Numbered from the stretch's first letter, positions 6,652 through 25,152 are shown. The stretch is DNA of 28,347 nucleotides from a virus (IMGVR_UViG_3300041407_000052:1-28347), one strand, 5' to 3'. Translations and numbers: made by a program. The notes: generated from the sequence alone by a model not told the origin.

Positions 6652-7900
6652 GAAGAATCTGTTCGGTTTGGAAAAGAATGGTGATGTAAAGGTTTGGTTG
6701 ATCAGAATTGAGGACGTGTTCTGTGATCACCCTGAAGTTATGTTGGTCATCACCCATGGTAAAGAAGGTGGTAAACTCACAGTTAAGAATGAGAGCGTGA
6801 CTCAAGGTAAGCAAGGTCGTACTGTTTACGAACAAGCTGTTTTGCAAGCTGAAGCTCGTATCAAGAAACAATTAGCTAAGAACTATCGTGAGAACCGTGA
6901 CGACCTGTTCGAAGAACTACCCATTATTGCCATGCTTGCTAAAGATGCATCTATGGAGAAACTGGAAAAGGTTAAGTTCAAGTACAAAGAAGGCATACTG
7001 GTTTCTGACAAGCTTGACGGTTTCCGCTGCCTTGCTAAATGCTTTATGTCTCCACACTTCGGTATTAAAACAGTTACGATTGAGTCTCGCACAGGTGAGA
7101 TTTACAAAGTTCCACACATCGAAGAAGAACTTCTTGGGTTCATGGAGCCGGGCGATATCCTCGACGGTGAGCTTTACGTACATGGTCCTGTACTAGAAGA
7201 AATCTCCAGTGCTGTAAAGCGGACAGATCCACAAGAAAAGATCAACGAGACATACCTTAAAGTTGCAAAGCAACTGAATAAACATGGTCCTGATAGTCCT
7301 GAATACGCAAAAGCAAAAACAGAGTATGCTCAAGCAAATGAAATTGCTAAGATTCGTGGCCAGCTTGAGTTCCGTGTATTCGACTTCGTTACTCTGTATG
7401 ATCCATTTGTGGTTCGTCTCGACAAACTGAATAAGTATGCGGATGAGCGATTCATTGACGGTGGTAAAGTATTCAAAGTTGCGTACATTACTGTCTTCTC
7501 GAAAGAGGAACTTCGTGCTGCCCACAAAGATGCTGTAGAACGTGGTTTCGAAGGTGTAATGGTTCGTACACTTGAGGGTGAATACGAGAGCGGTAAGCGT
7601 TCAGGCGGACTGTGGAAGTACAAAGAGTTCATGGATGCAGAATTCCAAATCTTGGATATTGTACCTGACAAACAAGGTCATGCTGTGTTCGTGCTTCGTA
7701 ACAACAAGAATGGTAATGTCTTTCAGTGTGTTATGGGTGATATGGAACAACGTGCTTACTACCTTGCAAACAAGCATCTTTTTATCGGTAAGTGGTTGAT
7801 GGTTAAGTTCCAGTCTCTATACAAAAAGACATTGATTCCGCAATTTCCGACTGGTATCATGTTCCGTGAATGCGATGAACAAGGGAATCCTGTTGAATGA
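6644..7900 (+). CDS. lig: ATP-dependent DNA ligase with WGR-like N-terminal domain
   Basis: Motif I DKLDGFR, III LDGELY, IIIa FRVFD, IV EGVMVR, V WKYK, OB-fold VKFQ...PQFP. ATG 6644 has a GGAG RBS (the track start 6590 is an over-extension). Confidence 0.95.
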   Translation: MFEKNLFGLEKNGDVKVWLIRIEDVFCDHPEVMLVITHGKEGGKLTVKNESVTQGKQGRTVYEQAVLQAEARIKKQLAKNYRENRDDLFEELPIIAMLAKDASMEKLEKVKFKYKEGILVSDKLDGFRCLAKCFMSPHFGIKTVTIESRTGEIYKVPHIEEELLGFMEPGDILDGELYVHGPVLEEISSAVKRTDPQEKINETYLKVAKQLNKHGPDSPEYAKAKTEYAQANEIAKIRGQLEFRVFDFVTLYDPFVVRLDKLNKYADERFIDGGKVFKVAYITVFSKEELRAAHKDAVERGFEGVMVRTLEGEYESGKRSGGLWKYKEFMDAEFQILDIVPDKQGHAVFVLRNNKNGNVFQCVMGDMEQRAYYLANKHLFIGKWLMVKFQSLYKKTLIPQFPTGIMFRECDEQGNPVE

Positions 7901-8427
7901 TTAATCTACTTGAGCATACAAGTTCGTCATACGGACCACGCACTTGGCACAATGCAGCTCAAGGTGTAACTCTTGCTATTGCCGTGGACTTTTCCACGGC
8001 TGGTGAGAAGCTTACAACTAAAGCAGCACAGAAGAATGGTATTGTCCATCTCGATGCTCGCGTGTTTGCAACCGATTGGATACCAGCAAGTCGTGAGTTG
8101 TATAAACTGCTGAGAGACAGTGATTGTCGAATAGTAAACGTTGCAGGCAACGGGATTTACACGTATAGTAAGCATGGTTTCGACCAACAAGGTGTTAACC
8201 ACATGGTTCAACAAGTACTCAAGCAAGTACACGAGCATTGGAAGCTTGACCATGTGGTAAGTGGTGGTCAGACAGGTGCAGACCTTGCGGGGTTGATTGC
8301 AGCAGCTAAGCTTGACATTGACTGCACAGGTATGTGGCCTAAAGGCTACAAGATGAGATTCGAAAATGGTGTTGACAAGGACCACACACCTAGTCAGATT
8401 ATGGATATAATCAATAAATACGCATGA
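7897..8427 (+). CDS. SLOG superfamily (YpsA/'MoCo carrier'-like) nucleotide-binding protein
   Basis: Contains SGGQTGAD.AGL.AA, Y..RT..N, G..LT and VNVAGN. The SGGQTG block is C-terminal rather than N-terminal. Confidence 0.72.
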   Translation: MINLLEHTSSSYGPRTWHNAAQGVTLAIAVDFSTAGEKLTTKAAQKNGIVHLDARVFATDWIPASRELYKLLRDSDCRIVNVAGNGIYTYSKHGFDQQGVNHMVQQVLKQVHEHWKLDHVVSGGQTGADLAGLIAAAKLDIDCTGMWPKGYKMRFENGVDKDHTPSQIMDIINKYA

Positions 8428-8432
8428 GGTAA

Positions 8433-9053
8433 ATGATGTTCATTTTTGGTAATGTAACAGCACATGGGGTTGTCTATTTGTATCCAGACGTACCACCAAG
8501 TAACCTAGTATGGACAGACCCAAAAGGTCATACAAACTACTGGTGTTCTGTGCAAGGTGATACCTCTGGTTCAAGTAGCAGTCCGCGTACAGAGAGTCGT
8601 CAGACACTTCCTGAATCTGGGGTACCTTACAACTGGCGAGTTGGTGAGTCACTACATGCGATGTTGGGTACGGTAAGAGTTGAATTGGCACCGAGTAGTG
8701 GTAAAGTAATCGTCGGTCAAATCCACGCACACAAAGCACCAAACCCATTTGTGATGGTTACATGGTGGAATGGAGTTGCAAGGATCGACCTGAGACTTAC
8801 ACCAACCAGCTCAGCAAGTAAAGTATTGTCTGTTCCATGTGCACTTGGTGAATCATTTGAATACAGTTTGGTATTGAGTCCAGACGGTATTCTACAGGTT
8901 GCGATCAATGAATCATATTACGTGCTTGACGTAAACCCTCTTTGGGATGAATATCCGTTCTACTTCAAAGCAGGTGCTTACGTGATTGACAATGATGGAC
9001 CTGAAACCGAAGGTGGTTGGGTTGTATACGAAAAGTTTGGTGTGATTAGTTAA
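8433..9053 (+). CDS. Polysaccharide lyase family 7 (alginate lyase), no signal peptide
   Basis: All three PL7 conserved regions are present: SPRTESRQ (R.ELR-like), IVGQIHA (QIH) and FYFKAGAY. Confidence 0.88.
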   Translation: MMFIFGNVTAHGVVYLYPDVPPSNLVWTDPKGHTNYWCSVQGDTSGSSSSPRTESRQTLPESGVPYNWRVGESLHAMLGTVRVELAPSSGKVIVGQIHAHKAPNPFVMVTWWNGVARIDLRLTPTSSASKVLSVPCALGESFEYSLVLSPDGILQVAINESYYVLDVNPLWDEYPFYFKAGAYVIDNDGPETEGGWVVYEKFGVIS

Positions 9054-9063
9054 AGGAGATAAC

Positions 9064-9792
9064 ATGCGTAAAATTATAGGATCGTGCGGACACATCGCAC
9101 AGTATGATCTGCGAGATTTCAAAGGTCGTGTACTCGCTGTGAGTGATTTGCACGGTCACTATGACTTGTTGCATGAATCTCTCAATGAAGTTGCGTTCAA
9201 CGCACAAACAGACTTGTTGTTCGTCATTGGTGATTGGTGTGACCGAGGACCAGACAGTAAACATGTTCTAGATTATGTCAATGAGCCATGGATTCACAGT
9301 CTATGCGGTAACCATGATCAGATGTTTATTGACGGGTTCGATGCTCATTGGCATCCGAACAACAGAAGTGTACTTTGTTTGAAAGCACATGGTGGTGATT
9401 GGATCTGGTCACTGACTGATCTTGAGAAGATACTGATTCATGAAGCATTCAGTGCAATGCCACTTGGTATTGAATTGCTGTTGCCACATGGTCGCAAAGT
9501 TGGACTTGTTCATGCTGAAGTCCCATACCATGACTGGGATAAATGGGTTGACATCGTTGAGACAGAACGCGATCATACACAGGCTGTTGCACAGTGGTCC
9601 AGACGTTGGTATGACTCGCAATTCAAGGGTCAAGTGAAAGGTGTTGATTTTGTTATTGCTGGTCACACACCAACCGACAGCGGTAATATTGAACGTCTTG
9701 GTAACATGCTGTTTATAGACGGTGGTAGTTTCTTTAACGATAAAGTCAACTTGGTTGAGATTGATGACAAACTGTTTAGGAGTATGAAATGA
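9064..9792 (+). CDS. Calcineurin-like Ser/Thr protein phosphatase (lambda NinI/PphA type)
   Basis: Metallophosphoesterase motifs DLHG, GDWCDRG, GNHD, HAEVP, GHTP and IDGG. Confidence 0.92.
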   Translation: MRKIIGSCGHIAQYDLRDFKGRVLAVSDLHGHYDLLHESLNEVAFNAQTDLLFVIGDWCDRGPDSKHVLDYVNEPWIHSLCGNHDQMFIDGFDAHWHPNNRSVLCLKAHGGDWIWSLTDLEKILIHEAFSAMPLGIELLLPHGRKVGLVHAEVPYHDWDKWVDIVETERDHTQAVAQWSRRWYDSQFKGQVKGVDFVIAGHTPTDSGNIERLGNMLFIDGGSFFNDKVNLVEIDDKLFRSMK

Positions 9793-11421: not shown

Positions 11422-11608
11422 ATTGGATGACACCTGTACGGTCTTTAGTCTGTATCAGGATGACGTATTCATGGGCACTCAGACTTGGATTGGTCAGCAC
11501 TTGCTCAACATTGGTAAACACCACGGTATCGACTTGAGCAAGTGTGAGAGTGAAAGTCACATGCTTTCAATTCTTGAATGTTATATTGACATTGAGATTG
11601 TTGACTAA
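11408..11608 (+). CDS. Hypothetical protein (MYKIKLDD...)
   Basis: ORF track 11393..11608; ATG 11408 has a GAGG RBS. Confidence 0.68.
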   Translation: MYKIKLDDTCTVFSLYQDDVFMGTQTWIGQHLLNIGKHHGIDLSKCESESHMLSILECYIDIEIVD

Positions 11609-11796
11609 TGGACACTGTAGATAAATATATCAGTCGTAAGTTTTGGCTTGCTGTTGTGTTCCAAACAGTATTCACGATCATGTTGTGCTACGGTAAACTT
11701 CCGGTTTCTGCATTTGAGAACCTGACGTACATGTTGCTTGGTGGTTACTTTATTAGTAATGTCACTCAGAAGATATTCGTTAAGGAAATTGTCTAA
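11608..11796 (+). CDS. Small 2-TM membrane protein, possibly holin-like
   Basis: SRKFW followed by two hydrophobic helices and a charged C-terminus; no endolysin nearby. Confidence 0.6.
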   Translation: MDTVDKYISRKFWLAVVFQTVFTIMLCYGKLPVSAFENLTYMLLGGYFISNVTQKIFVKEIV

Positions 11797-13510: not shown

Positions 13511-13784
13511 GCGAGTACAGTTGGTGAACAAACACGATGTTGGAATTCATTACGCTCTGTTCACTTGGCGTAAATGTGAATTCTGCAAACAAGACTTCAA
13601 GAAAGAGAGGGGTTATAAATGGCCTGTCTTCCGTTATGGCTATCAGTACTCGTGTGGTGATTGTTCTGCATCTGTGAGTCATTGCAACGATCAAATTGAT
13701 CATCGTCGTGCTTCTGAAGCTGCTCGAATAACAGGCAATCCTCCACCTGCTCCACCAATGCGTACATATGGAGTTAGACGATGA
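13503..13784 (+). CDS. Hypothetical zinc-binding protein
   Basis: CEFC and CGDC pairs; ORF track 13494..13784. Confidence 0.68.
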   Translation: MVKRVQLVNKHDVGIHYALFTWRKCEFCKQDFKKERGYKWPVFRYGYQYSCGDCSASVSHCNDQIDHRRASEAARITGNPPPAPPMRTYGVRR

Positions 13785-14587
13785 ACATCAGAACAATAAA
13801 TATAGATGGTCAGGTTATTCGGGTAGCAATTCGAGAAGGTTCGTCTGTACCGGTGCTATTCTTTAATGGGATTGGTGCAAGTTTGGAACTAGTACTTCCG
13901 TTCATCGACAGTCTACCACCAGAGTTGTCAGTGATTGCATTTGATGTACCGGGAATTGGTGGGAGTAGTTTACCAACTACAGGTGCGTACACAATGCAGG
14001 GTCTTGCACAGACTGTTAGTAAGATGCTGGACGTACTTCGTGTTCAATATGTGGATGCACTCGGTTTAAGTTGGGGTGGATTCCTTGCTCAGCAATTTGC
14101 ATACTCGTTCCCAACACGCTGTCGTAAGTTGATTCTTGCAGCTACATCACATGGTGTACTCTCTGTTCCACCTAGTTTCAAAGTGCTTGGTTTGATGTCT
14201 AGTCCTAAACGCTACACTGATTTGGAGTTTGCAGCACGCATTACACCAGACATTTATGGTGGTAGCTTCAGACATGACAAACAGTTAGGACTGTCTCACG
14301 CACGTAAGATGATTGCAGATAAGACACCTACATTTGAGCAAGGTTACAAGTATCAAATGGGTGCGTTGTTCGGTTGGAGCAGTTTAACTTGGTTGCATAC
14401 GATTAGACAACCAACATTGGTACTGTGTGGTAATGATGACCCAATCATTCCGCTGGTTAACATGCATGTGTTGTCCAACTTGATTCCTAACAGTGTACAA
14501 CATGTATTTAATGACGGTCATCTGTTTCTACTGACTGACATCGAACGCTGTACACCCATTATCCACTCTTTCTTGGAGTCTGTATGA
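13781..14587 (+). CDS. phaZ: Intracellular mcl-poly(3-hydroxyalkanoate) depolymerase, PhaZ type (alpha/beta hydrolase)
   Basis: Collinear with Pseudomonas PhaZ as recalled: FNGIGASLELV.PF, VIAFDVPGIGGS, lipase box GLSWGG, AQQFA...P.RC.KLILAAT, SP.RY, IYGG.FR, WLH.I.QPTLVL.G.DDP.IPL.NM, DGHLFL. Confidence 0.92.
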   Translation: MNIRTINIDGQVIRVAIREGSSVPVLFFNGIGASLELVLPFIDSLPPELSVIAFDVPGIGGSSLPTTGAYTMQGLAQTVSKMLDVLRVQYVDALGLSWGGFLAQQFAYSFPTRCRKLILAATSHGVLSVPPSFKVLGLMSSPKRYTDLEFAARITPDIYGGSFRHDKQLGLSHARKMIADKTPTFEQGYKYQMGALFGWSSLTWLHTIRQPTLVLCGNDDPIIPLVNMHVLSNLIPNSVQHVFNDGHLFLLTDIERCTPIIHSFLESV

Positions 14588-17239: not shown

Positions 17240-17255
17240 CGCGGGGTTTTCTTTT
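17230..17255 (+). terminator. Rho-independent terminator closing the + strand block
   Basis: Hairpin CCTCGC-TAAC-GCGGGG followed by TTTTCTTTT. Confidence 0.85.
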
Positions 17256-17330
17256 ACCCTGAATTTCATTTTCCCCTATTTTGACTTCCCTGATTTACAC
17301 TTTTCCCTGTAAATCCAGTTCCTGAAATCC
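17256..17330. repeat. Five degenerate pyrimidine-rich units (consensus about TYCCTGAWWT), 15-17 bp period
   Basis: Units start at about 17256, 17272, 17287, 17304 and 17319. Confidence 0.55.
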
Positions 17331-17454
17331 CGTCTTGTTAGTTATTCAACTGTCGGTAAATCCCTATTCGTTTAACGGAAGTAGCTCTAATGGGTTTAAC
17401 GCCCCGGACTTCAGGCAGCTACCGCCCGTCGGTATAATTCTAAAATCCCTAGAG

Positions 17455-17471
17455 TTGGCATAAACCTTGCT
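17455..17471 (+). promoter_or_regulatory. sigma54-like -24/-12 motif TTGGCATAAACCTTGCT
   Basis: GG-N10-GC spacing with TGGCA and TTGC boxes. Confidence 0.5.
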
Positions 17472-17494
17472 AAGTGATTCGGTTGATCACCATA

Positions 17495-17513
17495 TGTGAA
17501 TGATTATCATTCA
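17495..17513. promoter_or_regulatory. Fur-box-like palindrome
   Basis: TGAATGAT-T-ATCATTCA perfect 8-bp arms; 13/19 to GATAATGATAATCATTATC. Confidence 0.5.
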
Positions 17514-17727
17514 ATGTCATTTAACATAATACCTATTACACGCACAGCTGCATCCCCTCCCTTGGTATGCACCGGGAAGGTATTGTCTATCGATGGGTTG
17601 GGTATGAGTGGTTGTCTCTATCTGGCTGCATTGCACAGCCTTACCACAATGTTTCACTATACGCCCATGTGGGCAGAATGTACACCTTTTATTCATTTAT
17701 TTGTGCAGAATGCACGTATTGTTGAAT

Positions 17728-17746
17728 GATAATGATTATTATTTAC
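17728..17746. promoter_or_regulatory. Fur-box-like site
   Basis: GATAATGATTATTATTTAC, 15/19 to the Fur consensus. Confidence 0.55.
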
Positions 17747-18005
17747 CTTGATAAATCAAGGGTATTTTATACTCTATCCCATATAATGGGATGATAGTGA
17801 GTGTGGGATGCTTAGATCATTGTCCCAATGTTCAGCATACCCAAGAATAGTAATATTCAGTGAATAGTCAATATTATGTCGTTATTACGACATGTACTGT
17901 CAATGTTATGGCTTGTAAGCCATGATCTATAAGGCTTTGAGAGAAGCGGTATATGATGTGCTATGCACATGGTAGGGGTGCTGCACTGCTATGCAGTGAG
18001 TGGTA

Positions 18006-18021
18006 CTGTAGGAGGTTACAG
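18006..18021. promoter_or_regulatory. LexA (SOS)-box-like CTGT-N8-ACAG
   Basis: TACTGTAGGAGGTTACAG; the spacer is less AT-rich than ideal. Confidence 0.3.
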
Positions 18022-18355
18022 AGGGTATACTACCGTATACTAAGGAAGAGAACAGGGGTTACTACCCTGTTTCTATATCTGATATGTACGCCTGTTATGT
18101 ATACATAACAATAGGTAATTCTATAACGTTATACGTTATAATAGTATTCTTTAATACATACTCTTTGTTCTTGTGGGGTTTATCCCCACTCTTTCCTGTC
18201 TCTCTAATACCTATTCACCCGTTACTACGGGTGGACATAGGGCATTATAATAAGAAAATGCTGTTTATGTCAATACAGTATGGTTAAAGTACGTTTAAAT
18301 AGGTTGATTCTGCTAACAATCTGTGATAATCGGGTACATCATGCTAACAACTGAT

Positions 18356-18374
18356 GATAATGAGAATAATTATT
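18356..18374. promoter_or_regulatory. Fur-box-like site
   Basis: GATAATGAGAATAATTATT, 16/19 to the Fur consensus. Confidence 0.62.
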
Positions 18375-18383
18375 GCTTGCATG

Positions 18384-18404
18384 AGAAAGCCCCTTTCGGG
18401 GCTT
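18384..18404 (-). terminator. Rho-independent terminator closing the - strand block
   Basis: On the - strand AAGCCCC-GAAA-GGGGCTT followed by TCTC; directly downstream of the last - strand gene. Confidence 0.78.
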
Positions 18405-18405
18405 G

Positions 18406-18421
18406 TGTTTCACGTGGAACA
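18406..18421. other. parS: parS site (chromosomal ParB-binding consensus)
   Basis: TGTTTCACGTGGAACA (TGTTCCACGTGAAACA on -), an exact match to TGTTNCACGTGAAACA; between a stop codon and a terminator. Confidence 0.85.
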
Positions 18422-18422
18422 A

Positions 18423-18632
18423 TTAGAAAGGGTTTCCCCACTCTGCAATAACATCAGCATTGGCACGTTCGAAGCATTCAGGCGTGAAACCTTTACCACC
18501 CAACTGCTTAGCCCAATAGTCAAGGCGTTTGCTACGGAATGCAGCCACTTTCATTCCTGTACTAATCGAACCATAGCCTTTCGGTGGATTGCTTTGACTT
18601 GCACAGTGTGACATCAGATTGGAAGATTTCAT
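18423..18632 (-). CDS. Hypothetical early protein
   Basis: ORF track; AGGAG RBS; has its own promoter. Confidence 0.72.
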   Translation of the reverse strand: MKSSNLMSHCASQSNPPKGYGSISTGMKVAAFRSKRLDYWAKQLGGKGFTPECFERANADVIAEWGNPF

Positions 18633-18672
18633 TTAGAGAACTCCTGTTGTGGTACTTTGGTTTAGATAAGTC

Positions 18673-18701
18673 ATTGTAAGCACTTATCCAACAAGGTGCA
18701 A
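18673..18701 (-). promoter_or_regulatory. sigma70-type promoter TTGCAC-N17-TACAAT, overlapped by inverted repeat GATAAGT-N10-ACTTATC
   Basis: -35 at 18696-18701 and -10 at 18673-18678; IR arms at 18665-18671 and 18682-18688. Confidence 0.68.
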
Positions 18702-18705
18702 TCTT

Positions 18706-18954
18706 TTATTCACTAATTATCTCGGTTGTTTGAATGGTTACAGCCTTGAATGTAACACCTTGAGCCAATTGACCATCAAAACCTATACAACGACTAGTCG
18801 CCTTTAACGCAGCCATTTTTGCATCTTCAAGGTTGTCAAACTTCATTGCATTGTTAATCGATCCCATACATGCGGTTCCCCACTCCTTATCCCATGCATA
18901 AAGGTAGTCAGAATTGGATTTACCGTAGAAGCGTTTGACTACAAAAGTGTTCAT
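18706..18954 (-). CDS. Hypothetical early protein
   Basis: ORF track; ATGA overlap with the upstream gene. Confidence 0.75.
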   Translation of the reverse strand: MNTFVVKRFYGKSNSDYLYAWDKEWGTACMGSINNAMKFDNLEDAKMAALKATSRCIGFDGQLAQGVTFKAVTIQTTEIISE

Positions 18955-19085
18955 GCTTTCACCTTGTTAGGAATGAGTTTAGTTCCGCAATGCCCACACC
19001 ATGCAAAGCCTTCTGCTACGATTGGTCTGTGCTTGCTTAGCTTACCGTGCAAAGCACCACACTTAGAGCATGGTTTGTATTTCAT
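18951..19085 (-). CDS. Small zinc-ribbon protein (44 aa, CSKC...CGHC)
   Basis: Translated by hand: MKYKPCSKCGALHGKLSKHRPIVAEGFAWCGHCGTKLIPNKVKA. Confidence 0.68.
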   Translation of the reverse strand: MKYKPCSKCGALHGKLSKHRPIVAEGFAWCGHCGTKLIPNKVKA

Positions 19086-19087
19086 GA

Positions 19088-19633
19088 TTAAACCCCAGCT
19101 TTGTTGTAAGTGGTCCAAGCTTCTACAAACTCGGGTGATTTAACAAGATCATCCATTAGTGAGTTGATATTGTCTTGATTGACTAGGATCATGTCAACAC
19201 ACCGTTGGGCGGTTGCTTCTGGTGTACCAGTTGCCAACATTTGCTGTTTAACGAATGCTTTAGCAATGTTTAAAGCATTCTGAAATGCATCAGCACGCGC
19301 TTGGAACTTCGCGTTGCTTGCTGCTTCACGGTCTGCATTGCGTTGGTTGGATTCAACCTGAGCCACTTGTTTAGCTTCGAACTGTTCCGAAGTCAGGCGA
19401 TTGAATGTGATTTCGACCTTACCCGAAGTTGCAAGATGTTTTTCAACCCGGACAACACCTGTTGCATCACAGATGTAAAACAAGGTGTAAGAGTTGCGGT
19501 ATACAGCACCACCAGTGACGAATGTATTTTCTTCTTGACATTGTGCCAGAAGAAACTTTGCCTGCGCTTCGGATTTGAAAAAGCCATTGTTAGACTTGAC
19601 AAGCGAAGCGAAAGAAACGGCAATGTTCGACAT
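19088..19633 (-). CDS. Hypothetical early protein with C-terminal helical region
   Basis: ORF track; GGAG RBS; directly downstream of a promoter. Confidence 0.85.
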   Translation of the reverse strand: MSNIAVSFASLVKSNNGFFKSEAQAKFLLAQCQEENTFVTGGAVYRNSYTLFYICDATGVVRVEKHLATSGKVEITFNRLTSEQFEAKQVAQVESNQRNADREAASNAKFQARADAFQNALNIAKAFVKQQMLATGTPEATAQRCVDMILVNQDNINSLMDDLVKSPEFVEAWTTYNKAGV

Positions 19634-19681
19634 GGTGAATCTCCAGAAACTTAGGAGGCTTTTGCCTCCCTTCTGTTAATC

Positions 19682-19709
19682 ATTTTACAGCTTTTAGAGA
19701 AGGGTGCAA
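19682..19709 (-). promoter_or_regulatory. sigma70-type promoter TTGCAC-N16-TAAAAT
   Basis: Member of the repeated promoter family; AT-rich UP-like element upstream. Confidence 0.78.
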
Positions 19710-19723
19710 CAATTATTTTCAAT

Positions 19724-19856
19724 GCTCTATAAGCTCATATAACGCGTTTTGAGCAACGATAATTTGAGGCTTGATGTTGCTATGTCTTTGGGTTTAAAAC
19801 GTCGTACCAATATGTATGCCAACATTGGAAGACAGTGTGGGAAAATTACGTGCCAA
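19724..19856. repeat. Non-coding repeat, copy 1
   Basis: Shares GCGTTTTGAGC, ATGTCTTT and TTAAAACGTCGTACCAA (17 bp identical) plus two TGCCAA motifs with 21031-21166. Confidence 0.85.
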
Positions 19857-19909
19857 TGTTAAATAGCAGGCTCCTCTGGTGATTGCCTCTGACCCTCACC
19901 AGTAACTGT

Positions 19910-19939
19910 ATTGTACAACAATTTTTAGAACCATGTCTA
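19910..19939 (-). promoter_or_regulatory. Possible sigma70 promoter TAGACA-N18-TACAAT reading into repeat copy 1
   Basis: Contains the family spacer motif TTCTAAA; the spacer is 2 bp longer than in the other copies. Confidence 0.5.
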
Positions 19940-19953
19940 TAATTATTTTAGGC

Positions 19954-19980
19954 AAAGAAAAACCCCGACAAAGCGGGGTT
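19954..19980 (-). terminator. Rho-independent terminator
   Basis: On - AACCCCG-CTTTGT-CGGGGTT followed by TTTCTTT. Confidence 0.88.
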
Positions 19981-19996
19981 ATATGTTCAAACGGGT

Positions 19997-20203
19997 TTAT
20001 CCACCATATTTCTGGTTAAGTAGCTCACCGATATGCAATCGATATTCATCGGGCATTGATTCATAGTCTTGAATGGTGAAACGTGAAGACATGGCAAGCG
20101 CAAGACATTCGGCTTTCTCTGCTCGCTCTTCCATCTTCTTAAGTGCTGCCTTCAACTGGTTAACATAAACCCGTGTTAGTTGGACATTGCTAAGCGCTTT
20201 CAT
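19997..20203 (-). CDS. Hypothetical early protein (MKALSNVQ...)
   Basis: Track 19997..20230; ATG 20203 has an AAGGA RBS (the longer start runs through parS). Confidence 0.72.
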   Translation of the reverse strand: MKALSNVQLTRVYVNQLKAALKKMEERAEKAECLALAMSSRFTIQDYESMPDEYRLHIGELLNQKYGG

Positions 20204-20213
20204 GTTAGTCCTT

Positions 20214-20229
20214 TGTTTCACGTGAAACA
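20214..20229. other. parS: parS site (perfect palindrome)
   Basis: TGTTTCACGTGAAACA, intergenic, between a stop codon and the next RBS. Confidence 0.88.
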
Positions 20230-20232
20230 ACT

Positions 20233-20430
20233 TTAAAAGATTATTTCTTGACGAATGATAATGATGTCAGCTACTTCAATCTGTTCTCTTGACCACAACT
20301 CACCATACCACAACTTAGATGTTGCCTCATCATGTGAATCAGTGTGCAACAAATCTAACATGTTGCATTCAAACTGTTCACGTTCGCCTGTACTCTTGTT
20401 ATAGGCTGTGAAAGTTATTTTGGTAATCAT
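20233..20430 (-). CDS. Hypothetical early protein
   Basis: ORF track. Confidence 0.7.
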   Translation of the reverse strand: MITKITFTAYNKSTGEREQFECNMLDLLHTDSHDEATSKLWYGELWSREQIEVADIIIIRQEIIF

Positions 20431-20452
20431 GTACGTACCCCCAGTACCTCAA

Positions 20453-20665
20453 TTATTGACCTTTGCACATTTTACCAGCATACATGATGTAACTGGCTTT
20501 ACCTTCTGCGCAAGCTTTAACAGCATTTTCATGTTGCTGAGCTTTGAATACAACAGCATTTGCAGCAACTTCTTTTGCACGGTAATGATCACCAACAACA
20601 GGGGCCACTTGCGAGATTGCCATGATCAGACCAAAGAACAGTGCAATACCGGAAAAGAAGTTCAT
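20453..20665 (-). CDS. Small membrane-anchored or exported protein
   Basis: N-terminal hydrophobic helix FFSGIALFFGLIMAI; AAGGA RBS; promoter upstream. Confidence 0.75.
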   Translation of the reverse strand: MNFFSGIALFFGLIMAISQVAPVVGDHYRAKEVAANAVVFKAQQHENAVKACAEGKASYIMYAGKMCKGQ

Positions 20666-20715
20666 GTGCGTATTCCTTTAGTAGTGGGAGGCTGTTTCGC
20701 CTCCCTATGTGTTGT

Positions 20716-20743
20716 ATTCTACAGCTTTTAGAGAAGGTTACAA
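20716..20743 (-). promoter_or_regulatory. sigma70-type promoter TTGTAA-N16-TAGAAT
   Basis: Repeated promoter family. Confidence 0.75.
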
Positions 20744-20746
20744 GCT

Positions 20747-20917
20747 TTATTTGTAGTTGTTCAAAGCCTTTTGCATGGCTTTATAACCATTGGCTTGCTC
20801 TGTGAGGTTGGAGTATGTGACAACTTTAGTAGCGTCAGCGTGCATCACGGAACCGAAAGGACCATAAACAACGAAACCGTTAGTGCCTTTGATTACTTGA
20901 ATTTGATTAGCGTTCAT
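20747..20917 (-). CDS. Hypothetical early protein (56 aa, MNANQIQVIKG...)
   Basis: Translated by hand; GGTGA RBS; has its own promoter. Confidence 0.75.
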   Translation of the reverse strand: MNANQIQVIKGTNGFVVYGPFGSVMHADATKVVTYSNLTEQANGYKAMQKALNNYK

Positions 20918-20967
20918 ACTATCACCTTGAGCTGTTTGAGTGGCTGTCTTGCCTCTCTATGTGTCCA

Positions 20968-20995
20968 ATTCTACAGTGTTTAGAAAACCATGCAA
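20968..20995 (-). promoter_or_regulatory. sigma70-type promoter TTGCAT-N16-TAGAAT
   Basis: Repeated promoter family; AT-rich upstream. Confidence 0.78.
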
Positions 20996-21030
20996 GTATT
21001 ATTTTCAATCTTTTAGAAAAGAATTCATAG

Positions 21031-21166
21031 GCTCTGTAACGCTCTATAATGCGTTTTGAGCGACGTTATAACCTACCCTTCACACTGCCATGTCTTTTGG
21101 ATTAAAACGTCGTACCAAGAAGCGTGCCAAGTCTGCTCTCTATATTGTATGCTATTATCATGCCAA
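21031..21166. repeat. Non-coding repeat, copy 2
   Basis: See copy 1; also contains the inverted repeat CGACGTTATAA...TTAAAACGTCG. Confidence 0.85.
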
Positions 21167-21224
21167 CTAGGAACGTCACCCACTCTCCCTGTTTGTCTCG
21201 TGCTAAATTCCACACCATGACAAT

Positions 21225-21252
21225 ATTCTATCAGTATGTGACTGGAATGCAA
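21225..21252 (-). promoter_or_regulatory. sigma70-type promoter TTGCAT-N16-TAGAAT reading into repeat copy 2
   Basis: -10 at 21225-21230 and -35 at 21247-21252; follows a terminator. Confidence 0.72.
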
Positions 21253-21271
21253 GGAATATTAACACATAGGT

Positions 21272-21294
21272 AAAAGCCCCAATCAAGGGGCTTT
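21272..21294 (-). terminator. Rho-independent terminator (possibly bidirectional)
   Basis: AAAGCCCC-AATCAA-GGGGCTTT, with an A-run and a T-run on the two sides. Confidence 0.85.
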
Positions 21295-21296
21295 CT

Positions 21297-21434
21297 TCAA
21301 GGTAGACGGTTTGGATTGAAGGTTAATCGATGGGCTAACAATTGTTTGTACAACTGTACTCTATCCGGTGATACCCGTGCATCAATCCAATTACGCATGA
21401 TGTACTTGCGTTTGAGCATTTGAATAGCGTTCAT
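21297..21434 (-). CDS. Hypothetical basic protein (45 aa, MNAIQMLKRKY...)
   Basis: Translated by hand; ATGA overlap; ends at the terminator. Confidence 0.68.
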   Translation of the reverse strand: MNAIQMLKRKYIMRNWIDARVSPDRVQLYKQLLAHRLTFNPNRLP

Positions 21435-21754
21435 CGTAAACCCTTTTCTATGTAGTCAGTATGCCAGTCAATAATGTCCTTCAATGCCTTCTCAGTCCTG
21501 AAACTGTAATCAGTCAGTACCTGATTCCCGTCAAGGTCAAAGGCATAAAACATACTGTTCCACACACCTTTGACAATTTCAATTCGCTTATAGAGTGCTG
21601 TACTCCTTACAAGCTCATACGCTTGAGAAGCGGCATATGTACTGGCTTCTTCTTCGGAATCAAAACAGGTAGACACAAGTAACCCTTTATCTTTACCTGT
21701 AAGCATTCGCAATGACCAGTGTGTGCGGTACTTTTCAATCTTTACTAACAACAT
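21431..21754 (-). CDS. Hypothetical early protein
   Basis: ORF track. Confidence 0.78.
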   Translation of the reverse strand: MLLVKIEKYRTHWSLRMLTGKDKGLLVSTCFDSEEEASTYAASQAYELVRSTALYKRIEIVKGVWNSMFYAFDLDGNQVLTDYSFRTEKALKDIIDWHTDYIEKGLR

Positions 21755-21755
21755 G

Positions 21756-22163
21756 TTAGTTACTCACCTTCTGAAGCGTCAAACCAACAATACCACCAGC
21801 GTTATAAATCACACGTTCAATAGTTGTCATTGGAACGTTGCAACACACAGTACCATCAAAATATTGCTCTAGCTCTTTAGGGAATTCACCAGAACAATGC
21901 AGTAGTTCGAACGATTCGTATAACGAATATTGTTGATTGGTTCGTGGCGTGCAGTAATGAAAATCGCTCGCCTGAATGCTAACCCTGTCACCGTTGGCGA
22001 GTTGCAAAGGTGGAACAACACGGACAGAACGAAGCACCCCACTTTTAGTTTGCAGGCTTTCCTGCATCCATGTAGTGAAGTGCTTTTGACTTCCATCCGT
22101 GTATTGAGAAACTACAGCTGGATAGGATTCGTCTTTAGCAATGTACACTTGTTGACCGTTCAT
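21756..22163 (-). CDS. Conserved hypothetical phage protein (SIQAS.FHYC.PR motif)
   Basis: ORF track; AAGGA RBS; promoter upstream. Confidence 0.8.
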   Translation of the reverse strand: MNGQQVYIAKDESYPAVVSQYTDGSQKHFTTWMQESLQTKSGVLRSVRVVPPLQLANGDRVSIQASDFHYCTPRTNQQYSLYESFELLHCSGEFPKELEQYFDGTVCCNVPMTTIERVIYNAGGIVGLTLQKVSN

Positions 22164-22190
22164 ATTCGTATTCCTTGGTTAGTGACACCT

Positions 22191-22218
22191 ATTTTACAGG
22201 CTTTAGAAAAGGTTGCAA
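22191..22218 (-). promoter_or_regulatory. sigma70-type promoter TTGCAA-N16-TAAAAT
   Basis: Repeated promoter family. Confidence 0.78.
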
Positions 22219-22259
22219 GCTTTATTTTCAGACGTTTTGAAAGAAAATGTAGACGAAGG

Positions 22260-22283
22260 AAAGCCCCGACAAAGCGAGGCTTT
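22260..22283 (-). terminator. Rho-independent terminator
   Basis: On - AAAGCCTCG-CTTTGT-CGGGGCTTT followed by CCTTC; same loop as 19961 and 26958. Confidence 0.82.
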
Positions 22284-22284
22284 G

Positions 22285-22300
22285 TGTTTCACGTGGAACA
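22285..22300. other. parS: parS site
   Basis: TGTTTCACGTGGAACA, identical to 18406-18421; again between a stop codon and a terminator. Confidence 0.85.
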
Positions 22301-22510
22301 TCACACGGTTATGGTGATTCGTGTTCCTTTGACTTCAAAGTCTAGTAAGAAAAGTTGTAGAAGTTCCTCACGGCTGAAAACTTTTGACGTATAGATGTCA
22401 TGTCGGTTAATGCCAAGATCGGCAACCAACTGTAAAGCCGAAGGACAAGGTTCACGACCTAAGACAATATAGACAGACCATTCAAACTGTGAAACGTCAG
22501 GGTTTGACAT
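22301..22510 (-). CDS. Hypothetical early protein
   Basis: ORF track; GAGG RBS. Confidence 0.72.
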   Translation of the reverse strand: MSNPDVSQFEWSVYIVLGREPCPSALQLVADLGINRHDIYTSKVFSREELLQLFLLDFEVKGTRITITV

Positions 22511-22511
22511 G

Positions 22512-22829
22512 TTACACCTCAGTGGTTAGAGCCAGTGCAATTGCCTTATCAAAGGCTGCTAGCACTTCGTCATGCGTGTGACTGTCGTTGTATGGTGCAA
22601 AGGTGCAGTCTTTTGGTATTTCACCTTCCACAACACGCGCTAGAAGCTTAGCAGGCATACCATTAAGAACATCACCATACCAGTCAACACCAACCACTTC
22701 ACCAATGGCACCCAATGAACAATAACAAGTAGGCTCATTCTCAGCCTCTTTTATATAGTCGCCTTGCATCCAATGCAAAGGGTTTTCGATCAAAGCACGA
22801 GCGCTTACCAGAATTTCAGAAGTTTTCAT
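22512..22829 (-). CDS. Conserved hypothetical phage protein (resembles DUF6197: CSLGAI...ND...EVLAAFDKAI)
   Basis: Track 22512..22898; ATG 22829 has a GAGGA RBS. Confidence 0.75.
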   Translation of the reverse strand: MKTSEILVSARALIENPLHWMQGDYIKEAENEPTCYCSLGAIGEVVGVDWYGDVLNGMPAKLLARVVEGEIPKDCTFAPYNDSHTHDEVLAAFDKAIALALTTEV

Positions 22830-22836
22830 ACGTTCC

Positions 22837-23148
22837 TCATTTACTACGAAGTTGATTGATCTTTTGAGTAATAACCTTTGCACTCTCTTTACCACCATGT
22901 TTATCAGGGTGTACGAGTTGCAACAGGCTCTTTAGTTCGTTGTCTGTGAACTGACTACCGGAATGACACGCTAGAAACTGTTGACCACCTTTGGCGTTAA
23001 CATCTCTAACCAGTTCATTCCATCGCTCAAGCAAGCCTTTATATTTAATGTCAAGGTATTCATGCTCACGCTTAAGTTCCCAATATGCATTGGCATTAAT
23101 CTTGCGCTGACGTTCTGACTTGTCGTAAGTTGATTGCCTTACAAACAT
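22837..23148 (-). CDS. Protein with C-terminal J-domain-like HPD motif
   Basis: LKSLLQLVHPDKHGG...A...TQKINQL follows an N-terminal coiled coil. Confidence 0.68.
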   Translation of the reverse strand: MFVRQSTYDKSERQRKINANAYWELKREHEYLDIKYKGLLERWNELVRDVNAKGGQQFLACHSGSQFTDNELKSLLQLVHPDKHGGKESAKVITQKINQLRSK

Positions 23149-23740: not shown

Positions 23741-23839
23741 TTAAACCGCCGTCGCCAAGATGGAACCATAGTTAATCATAGCAAACAGAGCTACAGTAAT
23801 CAGTACACCAACAGGAAGTGCAACCATATATTTGTTCAT
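23741..23839 (-). CDS. Small membrane peptide (32 aa, MNKYMVALPVGVLITVALFAMINYGSILATAV)
   Basis: Translated by hand; first ORF after promoter 23892; single TM. Confidence 0.58.
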   Translation of the reverse strand: MNKYMVALPVGVLITVALFAMINYGSILATAV

Positions 23840-23891
23840 GATAATGTTTCTCATCTTGAGGAGAAAACCATTTCTCTCCTTCTTGTCCTCA

Positions 23892-23919: not shown

Positions 23920-24107
23920 CCTTTATTTTGCATTCTTTTCATCTGGTGTCGTCTGTCTATTGCCGAAAAGGTATTAGCATTTAACCGCCGTTTGTCAACC
24001 CTTTCAGTAGTCCAATACCCATCAAGGTACATGAGAATACCAACCGCAACAGCTGAACCAATGATGATAATGATTATCAGTTGTGCAAACTGTTCCCAAG
24101 GCATCAT
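23916..24107 (-). CDS. Small membrane protein
   Basis: ORF track; TM helix LIIIIIIGSAVAVGILMYL. Confidence 0.7.
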   Translation of the reverse strand: MMPWEQFAQLIIIIIIGSAVAVGILMYLDGYWTTERVDKRRLNANTFSAIDRRHQMKRMQNKG

Positions 24108-24906: not shown

Positions 24907-25152
24907 TTAGTCTGGTTTAAATTTACAAAGAATGTGAGACGGTGCAATAAACTGAAGCGCATAACACTGTGCATCTTGCAAGGTTTTGAATGGTTTAAAC
25001 TCCCAATCAACACCAACGCCACCAGAGTGTGTACTAACTTCAAAACAGCAACCTCTAAACACTGGTGTTTCACTTTCGTATATACGTGCTATACGATCAA
25101 CAGGAAGGTTGTACACATGGCTATTGCTTGAGTATGTGCAAAGCTTTTTCAT
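24907..25152 (-). CDS. Hypothetical protein (MKKLCTYS...)
   Basis: Track 24907..25215; ATG 25152 overlaps the upstream stop; GAGG RBS. Confidence 0.68.
   Translation of the reverse strand: MKKLCTYSSNSHVYNLPVDRIARIYESETPVFRGCCFEVSTHSGGVGVDWEFKPFKTLQDAQCYALQFIAPSHILCKFKPD

Follow-up and report, generated by a model that had tools for sequence, protein, structure and literature searches.

Why should a phage carry, among its own small genes, three copies of parS, the site at which ParB is loaded in bacterial chromosome partition? The question is raised by IMGVR_UViG_3300041407_000052:1-28347, a stretch of 28,347 nucleotides (the window) that forms the first 28 kb of a single virus genome of 104,392 bp with a GC content of 42.4%. 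The phage is uncultured and its genome is a metagenome assembly; of the sequencing runs listed, a single one contains the full record, a rhizosphere metagenome that is possibly its source, and no RNA run is listed as containing it. We consider, with moderate confidence, that the sites are functional centromere-type parS, that is, loading sites of the host ParB which are kept by selection in a phage with no cognate ParB. Positions below are those of the window unless another genome is named.

18406-18421: parS site 1, TGTTTCACGTGGAACA; the minus-strand transcript reads TGTTCCACGTGAAACA; ortholog kept in the relative G001
20214-20229: parS site 2, TGTTTCACGTGAAACA, a perfect palindrome; between the stop codon at 20233 and a ribosome-binding site (RBS) plus ATG (20203)
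22285-22300: parS site 3, TGTTTCACGTGGAACA; ortholog kept in the relative G001

An earlier note on this DNA had reported these three 16-mers at 18406, 20214 and 22285 as copies of the chromosomal parS consensus, one of them a perfect palindrome, and had held that they are not due to chance. This was borne out. All three match the chromosomal-type consensus TGTTNCACGTGNAACA, a 16 bp inverted repeat, exactly. The whole-genome scan that the note had proposed returned them as the sole sites, with no further match at two mismatches or fewer across the 104,392 bp. About 0.0005 exact matches per genome are expected from base composition, the Poisson probability of three is about 1e-11, and none of 100 shuffled sequences reached the observed number. 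The sites use GTTTCAC half-sites; no half-site enrichment worth reporting was seen. All are intergenic, the genes around them lie on the minus strand, and they fall in the final 4 kb of a leftward block whose small genes have no known function.

No reader for these sites was detected in the phage. Six-frame hidden Markov model (HMM) searches of the whole genome, with E-value limits of 1 to 10, gave no match to ParB_N (PF02195), HTH_ParB (PF17762), TIGR00180, KorB (PF08535), DndB (PF14072) or the ParA-type ATPase (PF13614), and the same models did match in most control genomes. The absence of parA and parB, noted earlier for the window, therefore extends to the whole genome. The replicon has no cognate parA/parB that would complete a ParABS locus, and no self-encoded ParB-family repressor of palindromes, as in a KorB/OB-type network, was found in the source genome. 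What it does have agrees with the definition of orphan host parS taken from PMC2731898: several host-consensus sites on a phage without parB and lysogeny genes.

The lineage of the phage points to its host. Megablast gave no close GenBank phage match to the region, and blastn of the parS region against distant phages gave three tiny matches only, the flanks being unconserved at the nucleotide level. The nearest cultured relative is phiPMW, a phage of Pseudomonas putida; the large terminases are 78% identical, and NAMPT, the ligase and other proteins 50-65%. Remoter relatives are Roomu-2 and KoPa-4 (P. putida), SYP (P. plecoglossicida) and the Otagovirus group (P. syringae). In IMG/VR, the closest relative is G001 (103,827 bp), which was found via a DUF6197-family gene. 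The source phage also encodes two auxiliary genes.

13781-14587: PhaZ equivalog, medium-chain-length polyhydroxyalkanoate depolymerase (315 bits against a cut-off of 251)
8433-9053: stand-alone PL7 alginate lyase

Because of these two genes and the hosts of the relatives, Pseudomonas, a genus with ParABS, is the probable host of the source phage. No tyrosine integrase was found in the source genome by integrase model search, and a tRNA scan found nothing. The earlier note spoke of an early region and a lytic phage; these labels are well-founded inferences rather than demonstrated properties, because the small genes have sigma-70-like promoters, an integrase is absent and the relatives are virulent.

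The earlier note had also made its reading depend on conservation in relatives, and the sites are indeed conserved. Ten GenBank phages and G001 were scanned with the consensus at one mismatch or fewer, with the reversed pattern as a control. Among these eleven related phages of soil or plant Pseudomonas, ten (nine from GenBank, and G001) carry one to six sites: phiPMW 3, Roomu-2 3, KoPa-4 3, SYP 6, Ep020 5, phiPsa300 2, phiPsa374 2, psageK4 1, REC 3 and G001 2, and phiK7A1 has 0. The reversed pattern gave 0 matches in the 12 genomes of the lineage panel. Many of the relatives' sites are the exact Pseudomonas palindrome TGTTCCACGTGGAACA, the parS sequence found in the chromosomes of P. putida and P. 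aeruginosa (PMC4368675; PMC7022226, Table 1).

Position is conserved as well. In the assembled full genomes of the family, the site cluster always falls within the ~6 kb of the small-gene block that adjoin the convergent junction, and this map position is kept although the flanking DNA has turned over. The convergent junction is the record end in the Otagovirus phages phiPsa300, phiPsa374 and REC, each of which has one site inside each of its exact direct terminal repeats of 523-548 bp.

phiPsa300, 385 and 99134: terminal-repeat sites
phiPsa374, 389 and 98150: terminal-repeat sites
REC, 409 and 98293: terminal-repeat sites

The terminal repeat of phiPsa374 also contains three copies of CTATATAGTGCAACGGTAAT.

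In G001, sites 1 and 3 are retained, as are the terminator and the downstream sequence of each, with ~94% identity. Homology stops exactly at the gene-side edge of both shared parS, and the upstream gene is different or absent; at site 3, the DUF6197 gene of G001 ends 4 nt before parS. Site 2 lies within a 2.5 kb segment in whose place G001 has unrelated DNA. Such breakpoints raise the idea that the 16-mers are linker or boundary sequences that help co-infecting phages to swap cassettes of early genes by short-homology recombination, after the manner of the cassettes of T4-type phages. Both shared sites are at points where one gene was inserted and another replaced, and the region has repeated promoter plus stem-loop cassettes (repeat family D1, listed below). 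However, only two junctions are concerned, several other breakpoints in the region have no site, and the coincidence could be a side effect of conserved sites and not their purpose. Neither the identity with the host centromere, nor the placement in terminal repeats, nor the retention of the sites in phiPMW after loss of CACGTG is explained by a linker role, which we hold to be very unlikely.

The case of phiPMW is as follows. CACGTG does not occur in its 103 kb, against 17-37 occurrences in the source genome, phiK7A1 and Ep020, and GTGCAC and CAGCTG are also missing. These missing palindromes are a strong sign of restriction-site avoidance. Ep020 likewise lacks GTGCAC, and phiK7A1 lacks CAGCTG. 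The three parS sites of phiPMW keep 15 of the 16 positions, and the sole change is a transition that destroys CACGTG; two pressures in opposite directions seem to have met in a minimal change. Since this retention is hard to explain otherwise, the rest of the palindrome seems to matter to the phage.

The sites are thus commoner than chance and kept by selection, judging from their rarity, their presence in ten of eleven relatives, the empty control and phiPMW. Chance matches or functionless leftovers of captured host DNA would draw on the general mosaicism of the region and on nothing else. Against them stand three sites where ~0.0005 are expected, the reversed control with 0 in 12 lineage genomes, the ten sister genomes with 0 sites, the conservation of the sites through turnover of their flanks, and the signature in phiPMW. 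Chance is excluded as the explanation, and the probability left to this alternative as a whole is negligible.

Orphan parS has a precedent in virulent phages. Five host-type parS are described on phi29, and the host protein Spo0J is involved in moving its genome into the prespore (PMC2731898, citing Meijer et al. 2005, EMBO J 24:3647); the earlier note was wrong to regard such sites as undescribed for a virulent phage. Host Spo0A boxes on phi29 suppress its lytic programme (PMC2731898). The phages phi29 and Nf resemble the source phage in being virulent, having no parB and carrying several host-chromosome parS, which in phi29 are read by host Spo0J (PMC2731898). The resemblance may go further, since the Spo0A boxes of phi29 are sites of a second host regulator and the source phage has Fur-box-like sites in the parS region (PMC2731898). 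There are also differences. The source phage is a myovirus-type phage of ~100 kb whereas phi29 is a protein-primed podovirus of 19 kb, and unlike in phi29 its putative sites lie where early operons end and, among relatives, within direct terminal repeats. The inferred host is a non-sporulating Gram-negative bacterium, and therefore spore entrapment cannot be the benefit for the source phage. The literature searched gave no description of host-type parS on virulent phages of Pseudomonas or other Gram-negative bacteria, nor are the sites mentioned in the phiPMW genome paper. What is new here is a phi29-type orphan host parS in a virulent Gram-negative lineage, with conserved position, terminal-repeat copies and a selection signature.

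Because the sites are kept in relatives and ParB is lacking in the phage itself, host ParB is most likely borrowed, and we infer it as the most economical reader of the sites. In P. aeruginosa, ParB is found on half-sites of both kinds, GTTCCAC and GTTTCAC (PMC7022226, PMC4368675). Host chromosomal ParB, a sliding clamp dependent on cytidine triphosphate (CTP), would nucleate at the sites on the phage genome, which sit distally in the early-type block, by the junction at which the genomes of related phages physically end. Our first choice for what follows is that ParB loading would hook the phage DNA to the host ParABS apparatus. The tethered genome would then be parked and inherited during a non-productive or delayed infection, such as in starved cells or a carrier state, until lysis is possible. 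Such parking would be the non-sporulating counterpart of the Spo0J-dependent spore entrapment of phi29. As a second choice, possibly concurrent, ParB at operon ends may insulate or silence neighbouring early promoters; spreading of ParB from parS silences adjacent promoters in P. aeruginosa (PMC7022226, PMC4368675). The downstream benefit of ParB binding is speculative, and this applies also to the shielding of the phage DNA and the titration of ParB that the earlier note had put forward; recruitment of SMC to the phage sites found no support here.

Several points weigh against host ParB as the reader. The host is itself only probable, since the phage is a metagenome assembly, and binding of ParB is a prediction from sequence. 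In P. aeruginosa, C is invariant at the position in question in 20 of 20 chromosomal half-sites (PMC4368675). The source sites use the T-type half, and therefore the affinity of host ParB for them could be lower. A symmetric DNA-binding dimer does not explain the coupling of the sites to stop codons and terminators, or the constant orientation of the asymmetric ones. Sister phages of P. aeruginosa (four) and Acinetobacter (one) have no sites; therefore the presence of ParB in the host does not by itself select for them. Among phages of Enterobacterales, five Felix-O1-like ones have 0 sites, as predicted. Enterobacterales have no chromosomal ParABS. With phages of both kinds of host alike without sites, the natural control that we had based on these ten genomes was rejected as non-discriminating. 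Finally, in some relatives a site flanks a gene for a ParB-fold protein of the DndB family, with HMM confirmation of the gene in three phages, and the flanks of the site in KoPa-4 match those in Roomu-2.

Roomu-2, 60004-61467: DndB-family gene, ~485 aa
SYP, 7671-9125: DndB-family gene, ~485 aa
Ep020, about 68186-69640: DndB-family gene, ~485 aa

The DndB-family protein could be a phage-encoded reader in Roomu-2, SYP, Ep020 and KoPa-4. In general form, the 16-mers would be operators for a phage-encoded regulator that shares the parS sequence, be it a ParB-fold protein similar to DndB or a helix-turn-helix protein that escaped recognition. The 485 aa gene is directly flanked by the site, and DndB is a ParB-fold transcriptional repressor (PMC12704722). 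However, the DndB-family gene is absent from the source genome and phiPMW, and ParB_N was unmatched in every panel genome searched. In a phyletic screen no open reading frame (ORF) tracked the sites, the best candidate being phrog_24419 in 5 of 12 site-bearing genomes, and this weakens the idea of a phage-encoded reader. What fitted the phyletic pattern was limited to metabolic enzymes and two small proteins of unknown function, and these were rejected as readers. In addition, the identical host consensus occurs in unrelated phages of other host phyla. A regulator of the phage itself is thus an unlikely explanation. In REC, a long ORF at about 92000-93122 ends right at a site.

The placement of the sites relative to genes and hairpins deserves closer description. 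The features around them in the window are listed here.

18387-18404, minus strand: terminator-type hairpin, GC-rich, stem of 7 bp and loop GAAA; follows site 1 immediately
22260-22283, minus strand: terminator-type hairpin, GC-rich, 9 bp stem; directly after site 3
18423-18632, minus strand: ORF of 69 aa, function unknown; its stop abuts site 1; closes the leftward block of small genes
20233-20430, minus strand: ORF of 65 aa; ends 3 nt before site 2
19997-20203, minus strand: ORF of 68 aa; its RBS is immediately after site 2
22301-22510, minus strand: ORF of 69 aa; its stop abuts site 3; absent in G001
22512-22898, minus strand: DUF6197-family early gene; query for the closest relative
22191-22218, minus strand: sigma-70-like promoter, 67 nt beyond site 3; belongs to the next unit and to repeat family D1
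18244-18273, minus strand: sigma-70-like promoter with the perfect consensus TTGACA-18-TATAAT; 133 nt beyond site 1 and directed into the non-coding gap
17240-18386: gap of ~1.2 kb with no convincing ORF, where the NAMPT/ligase block converges with the small-gene block

The intergenic arrangement given in the earlier note, two sites between a stop codon and a hairpin and one between a stop codon and an RBS, proved accurate. Site 1 is 1 nt past the stop of ORF 18423-18632 and immediately ahead of hairpin 18387-18404; the 56-nt stretch with this hairpin has a folding energy of -16.1 kcal/mol (z -2.8). Site 3 is 0 nt past the stop of ORF 22301-22510, ahead of hairpin 22260-22283. Site 2 is 3 nt past the stop of ORF 20233-20430 and immediately ahead of an RBS (AAGGAC) and ATG (20203). 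In the family, eight independent sites show the order of stop codon, parS within 0-7 nt, and strong GC hairpin; four follow a stop codon without a hairpin, and the remainder are in terminal repeats or large non-coding stretches. Three sites, namely site 2 of the window (on the plus strand), SYP 294 and Roomu-2 59442, end 18-19 nt ahead of a TTGAC(A/G) hexamer.

The asymmetric sites beside a hairpin have their GTTTCAC half toward it in 5 of 5 cases. As transcribed, the asymmetric 16-mer has an RNA folding energy of 0 kcal/mol, compared with -3.4 when the orientation is reversed; the perfect palindromes have -3.9 to -6.3. The orientation seen could reflect a constraint on RNA or termination in addition to a function in DNA. 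Avoidance of RNA hairpins as a general rule was rejected, since a symmetric test on 119 unrelated IMG/VR loci gave 10 versus 12 and hence no bias. The orientation of the asymmetric sites is a local, unexplained feature; the rule holds locally.

The same features allow a different explanation, in which the sites act in RNA or transcription, as bidirectional terminator or processing signals at operon ends, and identity with parS is secondary. The constant order in the eight family sites fits it, and so do the 5 of 5 orientation, which would give a T-rich tail on the opposite strand, and the absence of an RNA hairpin in the 16-mer as transcribed, unlike in the opposite orientation and the perfect palindromes. 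However, there is no adjacent hairpin at site 2, at the terminal-repeat copies or at 24 sites of an actinophage-like contig (see below), and other terminators in the region, such as 19961-19980, lack the motif. Why unrelated phages should have exactly the same sequence is not explained by RNA structure. Furthermore, the IMG/VR loci show no general orientation bias, and Rfam gave no family match at a permissive threshold. We judge it improbable that a role in RNA is the primary one.

The position of the sites in the genome was also considered. A rightward NAMPT/ligase block meets the leftward small-gene block at the ~1.2 kb gap, and the sites are located at this convergent junction and at the maximum of the cumulative GC skew, the minimum being near 100 kb. 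GC skew in phages mainly tracks transcription. It gave no support for a replication origin beside the sites, and no origin was identified. The non-coding gap at 17240-18386 is weakly homologous to the left record end of SYP.

Orphan parS is not confined to this family. In an exact-match scan, more than 119 IMG/VR contigs carried the asymmetric 16-mer. One of them, IMGVR_UViG_3300037518_000322 (116,662 bp, 65% GC), has actinobacteriophages as weak relatives. It has 24 consensus sites in two clusters, at positions 91700-95691 and 105761-112396, and 23 of the 24 are the same asymmetric variant in one orientation. All 12 sites whose flanks were read lie between a stop codon and the RBS of the next small gene, and no ParB_N match was found in this contig. 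In addition, phi29-like podovirus contigs of ~11.8 kb, with a protein-primed PolB, a Gp16 ATPase, a connector and a Phi29-type capsid protein, have inverted terminal repeats of 344 bp (1-344, 11440-11783) with two sites each, 42 nt apart; four similar contigs were found. By their sequences, the orphan parS device thus occurs independently in actinophage-like and phi29-like contigs.

It is possible, if somewhat doubtful, that hijacking of the host's centromere reader is a general strategy of virulent phages, in which ParB-CTP clamps would load onto incoming DNA at termini or early-operon ends, and the genome would be parked, silenced and partitioned while the cells do not grow. Equally tentative is the corresponding view of its history, namely independent origins in Pseudomonas myoviruses, in actinophages with their 24-site arrays and in small phi29-like podoviruses.

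Comparison with other known systems helps to define the device. The chromosomal ParABS of Pseudomonas (P. aeruginosa parS1-4; three sites in P. putida) uses the same 16 bp palindrome family, and there too several sites are clustered within a few kilobases. In contrast, the source phage has no parAB in cis, its sites are not demonstrably beside an origin, and it uses the GTTTCAC half, which is absent from the P. aeruginosa chromosomal parS half-sites. KorB-OB of plasmid RK2 is similar in its dispersed intergenic palindromes near promoters and operon boundaries and in possible long-range silencing by a sliding clamp. It differs in that KorB-OB has its own ParB-family reader and site sequence, whereas the phage has no reader and bears the host's sequence. 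The temperate phage-plasmids P1, P7 and N15 and the cluster A mycobacteriophages likewise have centromere sites on a phage genome, in the service of extrachromosomal inheritance. However, they are temperate, they encode their own ParA and ParB, and their site sequences are non-chromosomal; in the source phage, integrase, ParA and ParB were not found.

If host ParB does load at these sites, persistence of virulent phages in starved or slow-growing non-sporulating hosts becomes directly testable. The cultured site-bearing relatives, namely Roomu-2, KoPa-4, phiPMW, SYP and the phiPsa374 group, are tractable systems for this, and both P. putida and P. aeruginosa can do without parB. A defined molecular basis would be gained for pseudolysogeny or the carrier state of non-sporulating bacteria, Pseudomonas among them, and the phi29 strategy would prove not to be tied to sporulation and to recur across host phyla. 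Orphan parS could also mark the hosts of metagenomic phages cheaply, because the host needs a ParABS of matching type, and could help to locate genome termini.

Among the remaining features, Fur-box-like sites cluster in the parS-bearing small-gene region.

18356-18374, plus strand: Fur-box-like site, 16/19, 31 nt from site 1; ortholog in G001
17496-17514, 17722-17746, 23834-23858 and 24060-24084: further Fur-box-like sites in the window
29088 of the genome: further Fur-box-like site

At three mismatches or fewer, the source genome has 3 such sites against 0.0 in Markov-simulated genomes, and at four or fewer it has 6 against 0.5. They may be a parallel to the Spo0A boxes of phi29, by analogy. 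Their occurrence among relatives is sporadic (4 of 11), and Fur boxes were therefore rejected as a trait of the family; SYP has one ~30 nt from a parS.

The promoters of the small-gene block are sigma-70-like, of the form TTGACA-16-TAGAAT. The region also contains the D1 repeats and a gene for a small early protein.

19651-19718, 20685-20752, 20937-21004 and 22160-22227: four 68 nt copies of repeat family D1
24907-25152, minus strand: phrog_24419, early protein of 81 aa, function unknown

Each D1 copy on the minus strand is a sigma-70-like promoter, which in three copies is followed by a GC stem-loop, and the repeats resemble the promoter plus stem-loop cassettes of T4-type phages. A stretch of ~100 bp is duplicated at 19724-19822 and 21031-21130. 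The protein phrog_24419 is common to the source phage, G001, phiPMW, Ep020 and REC, and in Ep020 it is encoded between two parS sites.

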